IMG/VR virus record: IMGVR_UViG_2554235177_000006
Strand: one strand, 5' to 3'
DNA from: a virus
Lineage: Duplodnaviria > Heunggongvirae > Uroviricota > Caudoviricetes
DNA length: 9,293 bases
Shown here: positions 2,747 to 9,175 of the stretch, one piece after another
Layout of the letters: the number at the start of each line of letters is the position of its first letter
Numbering within the stretch: position 1 is the first letter of the stretch
Notes under the pieces: generated by a model
The model's database searches: none
What the model was told of the DNA's origin: nothing
The model's input: the letters and a program-made list of their open reading frames with translations, nothing else
Position numbers and translations under genes: made by a program

Positions 2747-2944
2747 ATGCTAAAACAGCAGGATATGACAGAAGCCGCCAGAGTGGTGTTTAATGAATTA
2801 AGCGTTACCGACCCGGCGACAGTCAGGGAGATTGCACAGAATACTTACCTTTCACGCGAACGCTGCCAGTTAATACTGACCCAGCTTGTTATGGCGGGTC
2901 TGGCAGACTATCAGTTTGGTTGTTACAGACACCTTCAGTCCTGA
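2747..2944 (+). CDS. Hypothetical small protein (65 aa), possibly helix-turn-helix; alternative start at ATG 2624 would give 106 aa
   Basis: ORF in the Q-S cargo region; ATG 2747 follows a purine-rich AAGGGAAAAAG stretch. Segment TVREIAQNTYLSRERCQLILTQL looks HTH-like by eye. Start ambiguous. Confidence 0.4.
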   Translation: MLKQQDMTEAARVVFNELSVTDPATVREIAQNTYLSRERCQLILTQLVMAGLADYQFGCYRHLQS

Positions 2945-2956
2945 AGGCTTTTTTAT
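2932..2956 (+). terminator. Putative intrinsic terminator after the 2747-2944 ORF
   Basis: 6-bp stem CCTTCA/TGAAGG with 4-nt loop, then CTTTTTTATTT; overlaps the stop codon of the preceding ORF. Confidence 0.5.
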
Positions 2957-2972
2957 TTGTGGTAAATGGGCG

Positions 2973-2980
2973 GCTGGTGG
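2973..2980 (+). other. Chi octamer GCTGGTGG
   Basis: Exact match read in sequence. Confidence 0.9.
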
Positions 2981-3257
2981 GTGTGGTGGTTGTTGCTTTC
3001 CCGTTGCTGAAAAAGAAAACGCCAGACTGTTAGCCGGGTATCAGTTAGCGGGAGAAATTTTTAAATACTTCACAATTCAGGCGGTTGACTGTTGTCTGGT
3101 TTGCGGGGAGTTTGTTAAAAGAAACTGGCATGGTGAATCCCCCTGTGCGGAGGGGCAATCAGCGAGTAGGTATATGGGATAATCGCGGATTCAGGTGCTG
3201 GTACTGAATTCACCGGGAGGCACCCGGCACCATGCAATGGCACATAGCGCCACTCTC

Positions 3258-3294
3258 CAGCCCCTCTCCGGAGGGGCTGTTTATATTGATTTTG
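3258..3294 (+). terminator. Intrinsic terminator (GC-rich hairpin plus T-rich tail)
   Basis: Perfect 9-bp stem CAGCCCCTC/GAGGGGCTG with TCCG loop (3258-3279), then TTTATATTGATTTTG. Confidence 0.6.
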
Positions 3295-3313
3295 TCAGAT
3301 GTGAGTAAACTCC

Positions 3314-3649
3314 TTATGGACTTTGTTGTTTTAGCCCATAAGGACATATTTGCAGAGTGCAACGGTTATTAAAGCATTCATTCAATACGTTATCTGTATT
3401 TGTAGGGCATTCCTGGCTGTTTTTGATTAAATTCCAGAATGTTTTATTGAATGGTACTACGTTGTAAATGGTTACAGGTAGCACTTTGTTATTGAGCATG
3501 ATACCTGTGTGAGTCAGTGTAAATATACTTTCAGGAGGTAAGAAAGCATCCGATTGATACCAGATTATTAATTTTATTTTACTCCATATGACTGAAAAAG
3601 ATATTCCGCATGATGGCTGGATAACTGTATCAATCACAATCCACTTCAT
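3314..3649 (-). CDS. Hypothetical protein (111 aa) in an AT-rich island, opposite to the late operon
   Basis: Clean 336-nt ORF in strongly AT-rich DNA, where stop codons are frequent, so unlikely by chance. AGGAA about 5 nt upstream of the ATG; candidate sigma70 promoter upstream on the minus strand (TTTACA, about 15-16 nt spacer, TATACT). No recognisable family. Confidence 0.4.
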
Positions 3650-3909
3650 TTAGTTTCCTTGTTTATGCCTTGCTGGTGATGTTCTGAAAAGTATAAATGA
3701 TATTTTTGATTGTAAACCATAGAGCAGAATTATTTTTCTGATGTTGTTTATTGTTTATTTAAATGCAGGGTGGTTTATATCTCGTCTTGTAGTTTATCCA
3801 TGCATATCTGCTTGATGATGAGGTTTTTATTTAAGGTATGGTTTTGTGTTTTTTCTGTATTACATGTCAGGTATTTTAAAGAATCATTTTTCAGATGGTG
3901 GAAAGAACC

Positions 3910-4098
3910 ATGGCATTTAAACACTATGATGTTGTCAGGGCGGCGTCGCCGTCAGATCTTGCGGAAAAGCTGACACATAAACTGAAAGAGGGCTGGCAGC
4001 CGTTTGGTAGTCCGGTGGCCATAACCCCTTATACCCTGATGCAGGCGATTGCAGCAGAAGGTGATGTGGTGGTCAGTGGTGCAACTGAGCCGGAGTGA
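3910..4098 (+). CDS. Small prophage protein, DUF1737-like (62 aa)
   Basis: ATG 3910 preceded by GGTGGAAAG; about 60-aa protein (MAFKHYDVVRAASPSDLAEKL...EGWQPFGSPV...) resembling, from memory, the small DUF1737 proteins found between Q and lysis genes in enterobacterial prophages. Confidence 0.55.
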   Translation: MAFKHYDVVRAASPSDLAEKLTHKLKEGWQPFGSPVAITPYTLMQAIAAEGDVVVSGATEPE

Positions 4099-4256
4099 TA
4101 CTACGTCATCGTACTGGCCCGGCATTCCAGGCCATAAAAGACGGTCTGGCAGTGGGACTAAATGCACTGACGCTGACGGATATTACCAAAAATGCAACGT
4201 ATGGCGTTGAGATAGAAAGTCTGGTGCTGGAGATAAATGCACCGGCATCATCATAA
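4095..4256 (+). CDS. Small hypothetical ORF (53 aa) possibly translationally coupled to the upstream gene
   Basis: GTG at 4095 overlaps the upstream TGA (GTGA), with GGAG just upstream; runs to TAA at 4254-4256. Below the ORF-track length cutoff; found by manual translation. Speculative. Confidence 0.3.
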
Positions 4257-4341
4257 AAAGTGAGCCAGTCAAATGGAAGGTATCGTTAAACTCACCGGTA
4301 GTGTCAGTGGGTCGTCTGAGACGCCTGCATGAGTTATCAGA

Positions 4342-4371
4342 GCCATCAGTACTTAACTGGTGGCTTTTTTA
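4342..4371 (+). terminator. Putative intrinsic terminator immediately upstream of the lysis cassette
   Basis: 8-bp stem GCCATCAG/CTGGTGGC (one G-U wobble) with 7-nt loop, then TTTTTTATTGTTG. Would insulate lysis genes from cargo-region transcription unless RNA polymerase is Q-modified. Confidence 0.5.
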
Positions 4372-4405
4372 TTGTTGTCAGCTTCCGGATAACGGGAGAC
4401 GGGGT

Positions 4406-4621
4406 ATGTACCAGATGGAAAAAATCACAACAGGTGTGTCATACACCACGTCAGCGGTGGGAACGGGCTACTGGTTCCTGCAGTTGCTGGACAGGGTTTC
4501 CCCGTCTCAGTGGGCGGCAATAGGCGTGCTGGGGAGTCTGCTGTTTGGGCTGCTGACATATCTGACTAACCTGTATTTCAAAATCAAAGAGGACCGGCGT
4601 AAGGCGGCGCGGGGAGAGTAA
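4406..4621 (+). CDS. S: Class II holin / pinholin, phage 21 S21-like, with dual start motif
   Basis: 71 aa from ATG 4406, with a second in-frame ATG at codon 4 (4415) giving 68 aa, the S21-71/S21-68 arrangement. Core GYWFLQ...[15 protein letters not shown]...[11 protein letters not shown](K/R)[10 protein letters not shown] closely matches S21 as I recall it. Confidence 0.85.
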
Positions 4622-4625
4622 AGTG

Positions 4626-5516
4626 ATGAATAAAAAATATGAACTGGTTGTTAAGGGGATAAATAATTACGGGGATAAGGTTACTGTTACTGTGAAGTCG
4701 GAAGGTGACGGGCAAGCGTCGCTGTTGTTGCCAGATGTGGCGATTAGTCTTGACCGTACTGAAGGTGCCACGCTGGAGTTTTACGAAGCTGAGGCGAAAA
4801 AGCAGGCGAAGCAGTTTTTCATGGATGTTGCTGCCGGGTTATGTGAATGGAACGAACCGTTGCCGGAAAAGCGCCCCGTAATTTTAGAGGCGCAGGATGT
4901 GTTGATAACCTACAAAGGAAAGCTACCGGGAAGAATTACTTGTTCTCTGAAGATGCCGCCGTCAACACTGCGGTCAGAAAAAGATGATGTTGAATCACGT
5001 ATTGAAAAACTGGAGAGCTACGTCGTTGAGCTGAATAAGAAATGGTCGATATTGGTGCCTTCTGGCGATGAAAAGCAGTTTGCTGCGTTTGACGATTATT
5101 GTCGGAAAGTGATGAGCAGAAATCTCGCAGAGTGTTTCAGTATTCATAATGATAATTTCAGTGACCCGGAATGGGAGTGTAACCGGCCATCCTTTGTTGT
5201 ATCCGGTGATGCTGGGAAAATAACCATCTCAGAAAATGGGAAAGTAACACCTCCATCGCACCAGCACAGTGAGGAGCTCATTGAATTTGCCATTGATTAC
5301 CTGAAGAACAATAAAAAGCAGGGGCTGATGAAGCGCGTTGGCCGTTGCATGGGATATCTTCAGGTAGCCGCTGAGATTGAAGCGCTGGCCAGTGGTGCTG
5401 ATAAGGATGCAATTGTGCGGGAGGCTCTTCTTCGTGATTTTAATACTCCACCCTTTAAAAAAGTGCCGGCTTACTGGCTTCATCCGGGGCTGACTTATCT
5501 TAAAGTGCGTATTTAG
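4626..5516 (+). CDS. Hypothetical protein (296 aa) inserted between holin and endolysin; function unknown
   Basis: ATG 4626 lies 4 nt after the holin stop, with GGGGAGAG upstream; long clean ORF ending TAG 5514-5516, 36 nt before the endolysin start. No transmembrane segment or catalytic motif recognised by eye; contains a charged helical stretch (RSEKDDVESRIEKLESYVVELNKKW). Confidence 0.7.
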   Translation: MNKKYELVVKGINNYGDKVTVTVKSEGDGQASLLLPDVAISLDRTEGATLEFYEAEAKKQAKQFFMDVAAGLCEWNEPLPEKRPVILEAQDVLITYKGKLPGRITCSLKMPPSTLRSEKDDVESRIEKLESYVVELNKKWSILVPSGDEKQFAAFDDYCRKVMSRNLAECFSIHNDNFSDPEWECNRPSFVVSGDAGKITISENGKVTPPSHQHSEELIEFAIDYLKNNKKQGLMKRVGRCMGYLQVAAEIEALASGADKDAIVREALLRDFNTPPFKKVPAYWLHPGLTYLKVRI

Positions 5517-5552: not shown

Positions 5553-6086
5553 ATGAACACCAAAATCAAATACGGCCTGTCGGCTGCCGTTCTGGCGCTG
5601 ATTGCCGCTGGTGCGCCTGCGCCTGACATTCTCGACCAGTTTCTGGATGAAAAGGAAGGCAACCACACCACGGCATACCGTGATGGTGCAGGTATCTGGA
5701 CCATCTGCCGTGGTGCCATCATGGTGGATGGCAAACCTGTCGTTCCGGGCATGAAGTTGTCGAAGGAAAAATGCGACCAGGTTAACGCCATTGAGCGTGA
5801 TAAAGCGCTGGCGTGGGTGGAGAAAAACATCAGAGTGCCGCTGACCGAACCCCAGAAAGCGGGGATCGCGTCATTCTGTCCGTACAACATTGGTCCCGGT
5901 AAGTGTTTCCCGTCGACGTTTTACAGACGAATTAATGCTGGTGATCGAAAAGGTGCCTGCGAAGCGATTCGCTGGTGGATTAAGGACGGTGGCAGAGACT
6001 GCCGTATTCGTTCAAACAACTGTTACGGTCAGGTATCCCGTCGTGACCAGGAGAGCGCGCTGGCGTGCTGGGGTATCGACAGATAA
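5553..6086 (+). CDS. R: SAR endolysin (T4-lysozyme-like, GH24; R21-like)
   Basis: N-terminal weakly hydrophobic Gly/Ala-rich segment (YGLSAAVLALIAAGAPA) typical of a signal-anchor-release domain; catalytic E-x8-D-x5-T spacing in EGNHTTAYRDGAGIWT. Confidence 0.9.
   Translation: MNTKIKYGLSAAVLALIAAGAPAPDILDQFLDEKEGNHTTAYRDGAGIWTICRGAIMVDGKPVVPGMKLSKEKCDQVNAIERDKALAWVEKNIRVPLTEPQKAGIASFCPYNIGPGKCFPSTFYRRINAGDRKGACEAIRWWIKDGGRDCRIRSNNCYGQVSRRDQESALACWGIDR
5971..5978 (+). other. Chi octamer GCTGGTGG
   Basis: Exact match read in sequence. Confidence 0.9.
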
Positions 6087-6439: not shown

Positions 6440-6571
6440 ATGTCAGACAAACTCATAACGCTGGCGAAGATCCTCTGTGTAATTGTCGGCATTTCATTTT
6501 CACTAATGCTGGTTGCTCTTTTTCTTTCCATGGCCTGGATGATGTTGTCTTCGTCGGGGTTGCTGGGGTGA
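6440..6571 (+). CDS. Small putative single-pass membrane protein (43 aa) coupled to Rz
   Basis: Strong RBS GGGAGGA 7 nt upstream of ATG 6440; hydrophobic core [26 protein letters not shown]; stop TGA overlaps the GTG start of Rz (GTGA). Confidence 0.45.
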
Positions 6572-7041
6572 ACATAAACCGAATGCTTTCCGCGTTTATC
6601 GTTATTCTGCTGGTGGCCTGTGGTGCGCTGTGGATGGCAACAGACCATTACCGTGATAACGCGATTACCTACAAAGCGCAGCGCGATAACAAAGCCAGTG
6701 AACTGAAGCTGGCGAACGCAACCATTACTGATATGCAGGTGCGCCAGCGCGATGTTGCTGCGCTCGATGCAAAATACTCGAGGGAATTAGCCGATGCGAG
6801 AGCTGAAAATGAAACTCTTCGCGCTGACGTTGCCGCTGGTCGTAAGCGCCTGCGGATCAACGCCACCTGTCCAGGCTCCGTGCGTGAAGCCCCCACCACC
6901 TCCGGCGTGGATAATGCAACCGGCCCCCAACTGGCAGACACCGTTACACGGGATTATTTCACCCTCAGAGAGCGGCTGATGACGATGCACAAGCAACTGG
7001 AAGGGGCACAGGACTATATCCGCACTCAGTGCCTGAAATAA
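6568..7041 (+). CDS. Rz: Rz i-spanin (inner-membrane spanin subunit)
   Basis: Translation closely matches lambda Rz ([14 protein letters not shown]...DMQ(V/M)[12 protein letters not shown]...[10 protein letters not shown](M/I)TM(H/Q)KQLEG). Start either GTG 6568 (coupled) or ATG 6583. Confidence 0.9.
6609..6616 (+). other. Chi octamer GCTGGTGG
   Basis: Exact match read in sequence. Confidence 0.9.
6794..6979 (+). CDS. Rz1: Rz1 o-spanin (outer-membrane lipoprotein) embedded in Rz in the +1 frame
   Basis: 61 aa with lipobox-like LVVSAC and proline-rich [14 protein letters not shown]...WQTPL(H/N)GIISPSE, closely matching lambda Rz1. GAGGGAA upstream of ATG 6794. Confidence 0.85.
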
Positions 7042-7351
7042 GTTTTGTTGATGCGCCGTATCGTCGCTATATTCCCTCATTAACAGAGACCGCAGCCCGA
7101 CAGGGAGACTCCTCTGCGCGAGTGTGCGGGGATAATTAAAAACGATGCACACCGGGTTTTTACCGCGTTAATGATTCGCGGGTTTATCCCGGTGCGATGG
7201 TGGAAGAAACAGGAAGCTGTATTACAGAAAGTGCTACTACTGTATCCCGATGCGATGTATGTAATGTGAGTCAGATAATGGCACAGGATGTGGTGATGTG
7301 GCAGTCTGGAACACAGGATATATTGTCAGAATAAGACCCGTAGGAATAAAA

Positions 7352-7678
7352 ATGAAAAGACGCCTTTTACTACTTTTTCTGTTATCTGTCCTGGCAGTGG
7401 GATGCTCGCAGCAAAAAGCTGATGAGCCCCGGCAATTAGTGACGGTGTATCCACGATATCCGGAATATGCTGCAGCAAATTATATCAAGGGGCTGGTTGA
7501 GGTTAAGTTCGATATTGGTGCTGATGGGACTGTGACACGGATCGTTTTTCTCCGCTCAGAGCCTCATAATTTGTTTCGTGATGAAGTGGTGAAGGCCATG
7601 GCGAAATGGCGATTTGAAAAGAATCGCCCCTGTCAGGGAGTGAAGAGACAATTTATCTTTACGCCGTCACGTCCTTGA
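7352..7678 (+). CDS. Putative lipoprotein with TonB C-terminal domain (108 aa)
   Basis: AGGA 6 nt upstream of ATG; N-terminus MKRRLLLLFLLSVLAVGCSQQ is a signal peptide with a Cys at the likely lipidation site. The rest (GLVEVKFDIGADGTV...LRSEPHNLFRDEVVKAMAKWRFE) matches the TonB_C pattern G.V.VKFD...DG.V...S.P...F..EV..AM..WR.E. Confidence 0.7.
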   Translation: MKRRLLLLFLLSVLAVGCSQQKADEPRQLVTVYPRYPEYAAANYIKGLVEVKFDIGADGTVTRIVFLRSEPHNLFRDEVVKAMAKWRFEKNRPCQGVKRQFIFTPSRP

Positions 7679-7800: not shown

Positions 7801-7980
7801 TCATTTCTTCTTTTTCTCTGGTGGAACCCGATGAATAAGAGTTGCACTGGTTTCCGATGAGATGGCGATATACTCGGGCAAAGTATGCTGGCAGTTTTCC
7901 AACTGGTCAAAAATACCTGCTCTCGTCTGTTGCAATGCCTGCAGCATGCGGCGGCAATGCGCCTTGCTTTTACTAACCAT
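7801..7980 (-). CDS. Hypothetical small protein (59 aa); may extend upstream to ATG 8154 (117 aa)
   Basis: Very strong RBS (AGAGGAAGGAAAG) immediately upstream of ATG 7980. The upstream in-frame extension (IRIYLVLHDEFTQRLIEEGK) looks like a ribbon-helix-helix beta strand plus helix, but its ATG at 8154 has no RBS and overlaps the next ORF. Confidence 0.35.
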   Translation of the reverse strand: MVSKSKAHCRRMLQALQQTRAGIFDQLENCQHTLPEYIAISSETSATLIHRVPPEKKKK

Positions 7981-8041
7981 CTTTCCTTCCTCTATCAGTC
8001 GCTGCGTGAACTCATCATGTAATACCAGGTAAATGCGGATG

Positions 8042-8293
8042 TTATCGGTTTTGGCTACGCAGCATAGTACAAAACGGACAGGTGCATCCCGGGACGGGGG
8101 AGGCGTCACATGTCCCTGTGATGGTTGTTCCGGGTAATGCACTGTGTGGGGCATAAAAATGTCCGATAATTTTACTTTCTACCGCAGTTAGTTGATTCGT
8201 TGGTCCTGGTAGCACATTGGGCGAGGATTTAAATGCCAGGCAACTGAAGGATGATGTTGCAAGGGAGATAGCGAGAATATTTCTGATTTTCAT
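8042..8293 (-). CDS. Hypothetical small secreted protein (83 aa) with N-terminal signal peptide
   Basis: ATG 8293 with AGAGG about 9 nt upstream; N-terminus MKIRNILAISLATSSFSCLA is signal-peptide-like; candidate sigma70 promoter (TTACAG, 18-nt spacer, TATTAT) between it and cos. Its 3' end overlaps the long form of the neighbouring ORF in another frame. Confidence 0.35.
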   Translation of the reverse strand: MKIRNILAISLATSSFSCLAFKSSPNVLPGPTNQLTAVESKIIGHFYAPHSALPGTTITGTCDASPVPGCTCPFCTMLRSQNR

Positions 8294-8441
8294 TTGATGA
8301 TGCCTCTGTGTGAAATGACGGTAAACGACGCACTTGTGCCGGCACATAATAGCAAGCACCATAATAGATCAGATTCGATTCTTGCTGTAAGTGATAATTA
8401 TTCTCGTTTTCGGGTCCTTTCCGTCGATCCAACAGGTTACG

Positions 8442-8629: not shown

Positions 8630-9175
8630 ATGAAGGTTAATAAAAAGAAACTTGCCGAAATTTTCAACGTGGATCCGCGAACGATTGAACGCTGGCAGTC
8701 TCAGGGACTCCCTTGCGTCTCCGGAGGTGGTAAGGGCGTTGAATCTGTATTTGATACCGCCATGGCAATTCAGTGGTATGCGCAGAGGGAAGCTGATATC
8801 GAAAATGAAAAACTCCGTAAAGAGGTTGAGGATTACAGGGCTGCCAGTGAGGCAGATCTCCAGCCTGGGACTATTGAGTACGAACGCCATCGACTTACGC
8901 GTGCGCAGGCCGACGCACAGGAGCTGAAAAATGCCAGAGACTCCGCTGAAGTGGTGGAAACCGCATTCTGTACTTTCGTGCTGTCACGGATCGCAGGTGA
9001 AATTGCCAGTATTCTTGACGGGATCCCTCTCTCGGTACAGCGGCGTTTTCCGGAACTGGAAAACCGACATGTTGATTTCCTGAAACGGGATATCATCAAA
9101 GCCATGAACAAAGCAGCCGCGCTGGATGAACTGATACCGGGGTTGCTGAGTGAATATATCGAACAGTCAGATTGA
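8630..9175 (+). CDS. nu1: Terminase small subunit Nu1
   Basis: 181 aa; C-terminal two-thirds (ADIENEKLR...[59 protein letters not shown]...) near-identical to lambda Nu1 as I recall it; N-terminal DNA-binding part diverged. Confidence 0.95.

Follow-up and report, generated by a model that had tools for sequence, protein, structure and literature searches.

Within a 9,293-nucleotide stretch of a virus of the Caudoviricetes (IMG/VR record IMGVR_UViG_2554235177_000006; hereafter, the window), one short region carries, in AT-rich DNA, an open reading frame (ORF) on the strand opposite to the late operon. Is this ORF a gene and, if so, what does it encode? The sliding GC profile dropped from ~0.50 to 0.31 to 0.36 between positions ~3290 and ~3895, position 3304 marks the start of the 587-nt stretch with the lowest GC in all 9.3 kb, and the GC fraction was 0.325 in 3314-3900 versus 0.497 in the remaining window, in agreement with the AT-rich island at ~3300-3900 that an earlier note, made from the sequence alone, had described. 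Based on the composition profile and a 100-nt GC scan, we delimited an island of ~32% GC at 3290..3894 (no strand assigned), which consists of the ORF at 3314-3649 (GC, 0.345) and a 245-bp upstream spacer at 3650-3894 (GC, 0.294). On a 100-nt scale, GC starts to fall at ~3290, just past a terminator hairpin at 3258-3279, and the low-GC tract ends at ~3895, where the DUF1737 gene starts (3895..4098, plus strand; Pfam PF08410, E=4e-17). This gene, the first on the late strand past the island, bounds it and is annotated as truncated in the RefSeq record of E. coli strain 7/2.

The ORF (3314..3649, minus strand) runs from an ATG to a TAA, encodes 111 amino acids and is preceded, as described earlier, by a good ribosome-binding site, AAGGAA (3655..3660, minus strand), whose AGGA core, as read from the sequence, lies 6 nt 5' of the ATG. 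Generic caution allows for a chance open frame in an AT-rich spacer that is no gene at all, ORF lists being mechanical. In 5000 dinucleotide-preserving shuffles of 3300-3900, however, searched in six frames, only 0.56% yielded an ORF of 111 codons or more (the longest ORF averaged 56 codons), which upholds the earlier claim that such a length is improbable by chance; the probability that a single frame stays open over 111 codons, given the ORF's own base frequencies, was 3e-4. The ORF is also kept, at a nucleotide identity of at least 90%, in ~1440 of 5426 complete E. coli genomes (~27%), and dN/dS is far below 1 (0.10-0.18 between the iraL, Stx2-phage and iraM lineages introduced below, with dS saturated); iraL is thus under strong purifying selection. 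Together with a match to a curated family that has a solved homologue and a function published at the protein level for an identical protein, these results refute the chance-frame reading, to which we assign next to no probability. A 67-aa ORF at 3770-3973 (plus strand), which runs from within the spacer into the DUF1737 gene, past its start, was treated as spurious, since it has neither a family match nor a RefSeq annotation.

The earlier note could name no match for the protein. We found that it is 100% identical to IraL of uropathogenic E. coli CFT073 (WP_000871291.1), an RssB anti-adaptor of the IraM/IraL/RssC family, and the ORF is very probably iraL, which is carried by prophages and is paralogous to the anti-adaptor gene iraM of K-12. 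The CFT073 copy at 1343465-1343800 carries the same accession and is the gene iraL (c1429); 334 of 336 nucleotides are identical between the two, both differences being synonymous. Hryckowian et al. (2014, PMC4045071) defined iraL by a nucleotide identity of at least 95% to the CFT073 gene, and the window ORF lies above this threshold. The product in strain 7/2, which differs from the window at 1 of the 8450 bases compared, is likewise WP_000871291.1, and a megablast search of 3200-3950 against complete E. coli genomes returned 100% matches labelled "anti-adapter protein IraM." At the family level, the IraM-family model NF007393 of NCBIfam matched residues 1-110 of 111 with 162 bits (cut-off, 121), the solved IraM chain 8TWD matched at E=9.1e-32 with 65% identity (51/78) over residues 1-78, the portion with the PmrD-like fold, and the residues that contact RssB in the IraM structure are largely conserved. 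An hmmscan against Pfam returned nothing for IraL, a K-12-like IraM or a distant member, even at E<=10. In the homologue table, nearly all IraM-family proteins carry a precomputed PF11183 assignment, which hmmscan with Pfam-A did not reproduce. The iraL gene, its mechanism and its distribution have already been published, so the feature is correctly recognized without being new; what would be new relative to the literature is confined to side observations, namely, a linkage to the small RNA (sRNA) STnc100, a paralogue in Stx2 phages, a Cys-rich tail and a PhoP-like box.

Is the gene expressed from its own promoter? Upstream of the ORF, on the minus strand, a -35 element TTTACA (3711-3716) and a -10 element TATACT (3690-3695) are separated by a 15-nt spacer and form a promoter (3690..3716) that is of the sigma-70 type according to Hryckowian et al. 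(2014). The mRNA 5' end mapped by rapid amplification of cDNA ends (5'-RACE) for CFT073 iraL, ACATCACCAGCAAGGCATAAACAAGGAAACCA (Hryckowian et al. 2014, PMC4045071), agrees with the window in 31 of its 32 bases, which places the transcription start at 3682, leaving a 33-nt 5' untranslated region (UTR) (3650..3682, minus strand). Because this end falls 7 nt downstream of TATACT, the promoter named in the earlier note, with exactly these hexamers and a short spacer, gains experimental support. A generic promoter scan missed it because the scan requires a spacer of 16-18 nt rather than 15 nt; the two minus-strand promoters that the scan proposed instead, at 3757-3729 and 3598-3571, have no supporting evidence and were set aside. 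In published complementation constructs, the -100 to -1 region, which corresponds to 3683..3782 (minus strand) in the window, was enough together with the gene for native expression in CFT073 and K-12, and the window sequence is nearly identical to that of CFT073 over this region, with few substitutions in the promoter and UTR. Across 82 collected iraL loci, the -10 element TATACT is invariant, and the window carries the commonest promoter variant (49/82). The -35 element, TTTACA in the window and CFT073, also occurs as TTTAAT (n=11) and as TTTATA (n=6, including phage vB_EcoS-640R1); strain JJ1886 has a second iraL copy with a reported -35 point mutation, which may correspond to one of these two forms. 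Past the iraL stop codon, we found no intrinsic terminator on the minus strand, the only hairpin there (3258-3279) lacking a U-run on that strand.

Given that the RefSeq product name and the NCBIfam subfamily model both read IraM, we asked whether the ORF might be IraM proper, controlled by PhoP/PhoQ and induced by Mg2+ starvation, rather than IraL, which acts in log phase. One observation fits this reading: a PhoP-box-like direct repeat, TGTTTA-TTGTT-TATTTA, with one mismatch, lies at 3745..3761 (plus strand), at -79 to -63 with respect to the iraL transcription start and in inverted orientation, and its position is kept in the Stx2c-phage paralogue, where a one-mismatch box, CGTTTA-TTCTT-TGTTTA, occurs at the matching upstream offset. 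However, an equally good match arose in 4.4% of shuffles of the AT-rich spacer, so we treat the repeat only as a weak lead. Moreover, the protein is 62% identical to K-12 IraM (71% at the nucleotide level) versus 100% identical to IraL, and the upstream regions of iraL and K-12 iraM fail to align; K-12 iraM lies just past the annotated end of the e14 prophage with neither STnc100 nor a DUF1737 gene as a neighbour. The window locus thus differs from that of K-12 iraM in sequence, e14/ycgX context and regulatory region. We therefore regard IraM proper as a very improbable identity for the ORF and retain IraL. The two proteins (the K-12 one is also known as YcgW or ElbA) share a family, a fold, RssB as their target and RpoS stabilisation as their outcome. 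They differ in that iraM is induced by PhoP upon Mg2+ starvation, whereas IraL is active in unstressed log phase, and in that IraM binds both domains of RssB, whereas IraL binds only the N-terminal one.

What the protein does is known from CFT073, where iraL was found by screening for DNA that raises RpoS in an RpoS-destabilised strain (Hryckowian et al. 2014, PMC4045071). In that study, deletion of iraL lowered log-phase RpoS in CFT073 and Shigella sonnei and reduced the half-life of RpoS from ~5 to ~2.5 min, while iraL with 100 nt of upstream DNA complemented the deletion from attTn7 and raised RpoS in K-12. IraL was also shown to co-purify with RssB and, in two-hybrid assays, to bind the RssB N-terminal domain (Hryckowian et al. 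2014, PMC4045071). By analogy with the identical CFT073 protein, whose promoter differs at a few bases, a lysogen carrying the prophage of the window would transcribe iraL from its own sigma-70 promoter, counter to the silent late operon, and the 111-aa product would bind the response-regulator-like adaptor RssB. Since RssB bound in this way would no longer deliver RpoS (sigma-S) to ClpXP, RpoS would persist ~2 times longer in exponential phase. The regulation of iraL could differ here, because the prophage shows signs of decay (the truncated DUF1737 gene and, per RefSeq, a YdfR pseudogene).

The likely mode of binding can be read from the crystal structure of IraM(1-78) with RssB, in which a PmrD-like beta-barrel spans both RssB domains and covers the alpha4-beta5-alpha5 face, the site of RpoS. 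By extension, the N-terminal PmrD-like barrel of IraL would dock on this face of the RssB receiver domain. All five cluster I residues, which contact the RssB N-terminal domain in the structure, are identical in IraL (5/5), versus 3/5 for cluster II (C-terminal domain contacts; the others are T13S and L75I) and 2/4 for cluster III (linker contacts; H63N and I64V), and Pro66 is retained. In our reading, this pattern fits the published binding of IraL to the N-terminal domain only. An AlphaFold2 model built from 16 homologues was of low confidence (mean pLDDT, 54.8; tail, <50) and consists of strands followed by a helix at 69-77; its top three matches in the PDB were 8TWD and then two PmrD structures, 4HN7 and 2JSO. 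PmrD resembles IraL in its unusual beta-barrel and in binding the receiver domain of a response regulator, PmrA. It shares 15% identity with IraL but shields phosphorylated PmrA from dephosphorylation instead of blocking an adaptor, and it lacks a Cys-rich tail. The anti-adaptors IraP and IraD similarly inhibit RssB and stabilise RpoS, although their sequences do not resemble that of IraL (Hryckowian et al. 2014, PMC4045071). Salmonella RssC is reported to be an IraL/IraM-like anti-adaptor with 47-49% identity (Hryckowian et al. 2014, PMC4045071).

These functional data bear on what the gene gives its host. The earlier suggestion of an independently expressed, horizontally acquired cargo gene holds, in that the transcript of a gene for the identical protein has been mapped by RACE and the gene is carried by lambdoid prophages and sequenced phages. 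The accompanying suggestion of a lysogenic-conversion or exclusion factor holds in its first half only: iraL serves lysogenic conversion, by changing how the host responds to stress, and nothing indicates phage exclusion. In E. coli, RpoS levels govern stress resistance, biofilm formation and virulence traits. By carrying an anti-adaptor, a prophage can retune this master switch in its host, and iraL has been reported to be enriched in uropathogenic, prostatitis and Shigella isolates.

The low GC content of the region (29-35% over the gene and promoter region) raises the further question of whether iraL, even if intact, is silent here as xenogeneic AT-rich DNA repressed by H-NS, with no contribution in ordinary growth. 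The title of a 2012 paper by Battesti reportedly links H-NS to iraM and iraD, which would favour such silencing. So would the rise of CFT073 iraL mRNA by +1.6 log2 when the temperature goes up from 23 to 37 C (Hryckowian et al. 2014, PMC4045071), a response that is frequent for H-NS targets, although the connection to H-NS is our own. Against this, an identical gene with a nearly identical promoter is expressed and works during unstressed log phase of CFT073, S. sonnei and K-12, the gene is under strong purifying selection, and the high-affinity H-NS motif TCGATAAATT is not enriched, with 10 matches in the window versus 9.45 expected and 1 inside the island, such that no specific site is supported. 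The log-phase activity of IraL and the lack of motif enrichment argue against full silencing, which we consider unlikely, and an iraL gene expressed in log phase remains our reading. According to published work on the identical protein, IraL levels also go up in a fur mutant.

The setting of the gene is that of a prophage moron. The window corresponds to the Q-to-terminase part of a lambdoid prophage, containing a DUF968 gene (425-1483), rusA (1484-1852), Q (1839-2534), a holin gene with a P21 holin S domain (4406-4621, RefSeq coding sequence), the genes for lysozyme (5553-6086), Rz (6568-7041) and Rz1 (6794-6979), and the Nu1 terminase gene (8630-9175), with iraL between Q and the lysis genes and opposite to the late operon. 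This placement is shared with CFT073 and phage vB_EcoS-640R1. The gene has its own promoter, lies between phage modules and differs in GC from its surroundings (0.33 versus 0.50), as expected of a moron, although the classical promoter-gene-terminator form is only partly present because no minus-strand intrinsic terminator was found. Because late transcription toward the lysis genes must cross iraL in the antisense direction, Q-antiterminated transcription would run against it, and iraL is probably expressed in the lysogenic state only; that antisense transcription shuts off iraL is our conjecture from the anatomy of the locus. We did not locate a late promoter between Q and iraL. Terminator-like hairpins on the late strand occur in this interval at 2596-2621 (seemingly bidirectional), 2932-2947 and 3258-3279, and a 65-aa ORF (2747-2944) lies between them. 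The region 2541-2665 gave only sub-threshold Rfam matches, and a tRNA scan of the window found none.

Comparison with CFT073 shows how far the shared module extends. The two loci have in common the identical 111-aa protein, the promoter hexamers, the mRNA 5' end (31/32) and an opposite-strand site in a lambdoid prophage, with the Q/STnc100 region on one side and the DUF1737-holin genes on the other. The block from ~3000 to 4600 is 97-100% identical, whereas its flanks are ~84-88% identical or unaligned; the CFT073 Q gene does not align with the window, and the CFT073 interval between Q and iraL holds an IS200 element and three tRNA genes where the window has a small ORF. The mosaic unit thus extends beyond the AT-rich island, since the CFT073-like block spans ~3000-4600. 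In all of the collected iraL loci (82/82), the order DUF1737, spacer, iraL, STnc100 is the same. Four sequenced phages carry iraL at 98%, and 292 IMG/VR stretches encode a relative, the best 80 of the 292 being identical in protein. A species-level scan detected the family in Escherichia, Shigella and a single Citrobacter and nowhere else, apart from one match at 32% identity; the peptide patterns used in that scan did not recover Salmonella RssC.

The neighbour at the 3' end of iraL is itself a known element. The prophage sRNA STnc100 occupies 3099..3288 (plus strand; Rfam RF02076, 132 bits against a gathering score of 47), ends in the terminator hairpin at 3258-3279 and converges on iraL, whose stop codon lies 25 nt away. 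This convergence between STnc100 and an IraM-family gene is kept in CFT073, phage vB_EcoS-640R1, E. albertii and the Stx2c phage 2851, and in the compared loci, the sRNA lies at 33250-33439 (L003), 4835-5046 (L004, phage 2851), 4862-5050 (L005) and 2862-3050 (L006). STnc100 was present beside all of the phage-borne IraM-family genes examined, with a gap of 10-25 nt, including the 70%-identical module of the Stx2c phage, and absent from chromosomal iraM loci. The pair sits just upstream of the DUF1737 gene from uropathogenic E. coli prophages to Stx2 phages, despite a sequence identity of ~70%. Published work on Stx2 phages places STnc100 75 nt downstream of stx2, and neither a preprint on the Pas sRNA nor a paper on outer membrane vesicle sRNAs, both of which discuss STnc100, mentions an IraM-family neighbour.

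In phage 2851, that neighbour is an intact IraM-family ORF of 107 aa (NC_049943.1, 24239-24562, minus strand; 4501-4824 in L004) with 75% amino acid identity to IraL, its own ribosome-binding site and a TATAAT -10 element, located between stx2cB/STnc100 and the DUF1737 gene. It belongs to a third IraM-family lineage, found directly past stx2AB in Stx2c and Stx2a phages. Like iraL, the ORF converges with STnc100, diverges from the DUF1737 gene and opposes the late operon, and it retains all cluster I residues and the four cysteines of the IraL tail; unlike iraL, it encodes 107 aa, has a different promoter sequence and lies directly past stx2AB. Most of the Stx2c/Stx2a phage records among the matches listed have no feature annotated at this position, and a literature search found no experimental study of the paralogue. 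Of 5426 complete E. coli genomes, 236 carry it, and a sampled listing of these consists mostly of O157:H7 and other Shiga toxin-producing E. coli. A survey by BLAST and PCR at an identity of at least 95% found enterohemorrhagic E. coli (EHEC) with high log-phase RpoS but without iraL (Hryckowian et al. 2014, PMC4045071). A paralogue that is 75% identical would have escaped this survey and, if it is functional, might explain the high log-phase RpoS of such EHEC strains.

A broader proposal would join these observations: iraL, instead of being a moron on its own, would be one half of a conserved cassette of STnc100 and an IraM-family gene that tunes the stress response, antisense transcription upon prophage induction would switch the anti-adaptor off and so tie RpoS stability to lysogeny, the PhoP-like box and the Cys-rich tail would be further possible inputs, and the Stx2-phage paralogue would possibly account for RpoS in EHEC. 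We offer this as a tentative and, taken as a whole, rather doubtful extension of the identification of iraL.

The tail named in this proposal comprises residues 81-111 of IraL (window positions 3314-3409) and contains four cysteines, in the arrangement CP-x9-C-x4-C-x4-CPYG, that are invariant in homologues down to 53% identity. C81-P82, C92, C97 and I101-C102-P103-(Y104)-G105 are kept in all family members, Y104 being invariant in the first alignment and variable in the alignment of 16 sequences. The tail was removed from the crystallised IraM, where it was described as less conserved and flexible, and its pLDDT of <50 makes the AlphaFold2 model uninformative for it. Judging from the conserved cysteines, a metal-binding or redox site is possible.

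Some features of the window lie downstream of iraL. Directly past the holin gene, a 297-aa ORF (4623-5516, plus strand) matches DUF1327 (YdfR-like) over its first ~100 residues and has no family over the remainder; RefSeq annotates only a truncated YdfR pseudogene there in strain 7/2, and the high identity to CFT073 is lost at ~4600. A small ORF resembling a TonB_C lipoprotein (7298-7678, plus strand) follows Rz/Rz1, and phage vB_EcoS-640R1 has Bor near this position on the opposite strand. Two minus-strand ORFs of 117 and 106 aa without a family lie within 7801-8362, a stretch of lower GC before the Nu1 terminase gene. The ORFs around 7298-7678 (plus strand) and 7801-8362 (minus strand) may be further cargo genes of this prophage.
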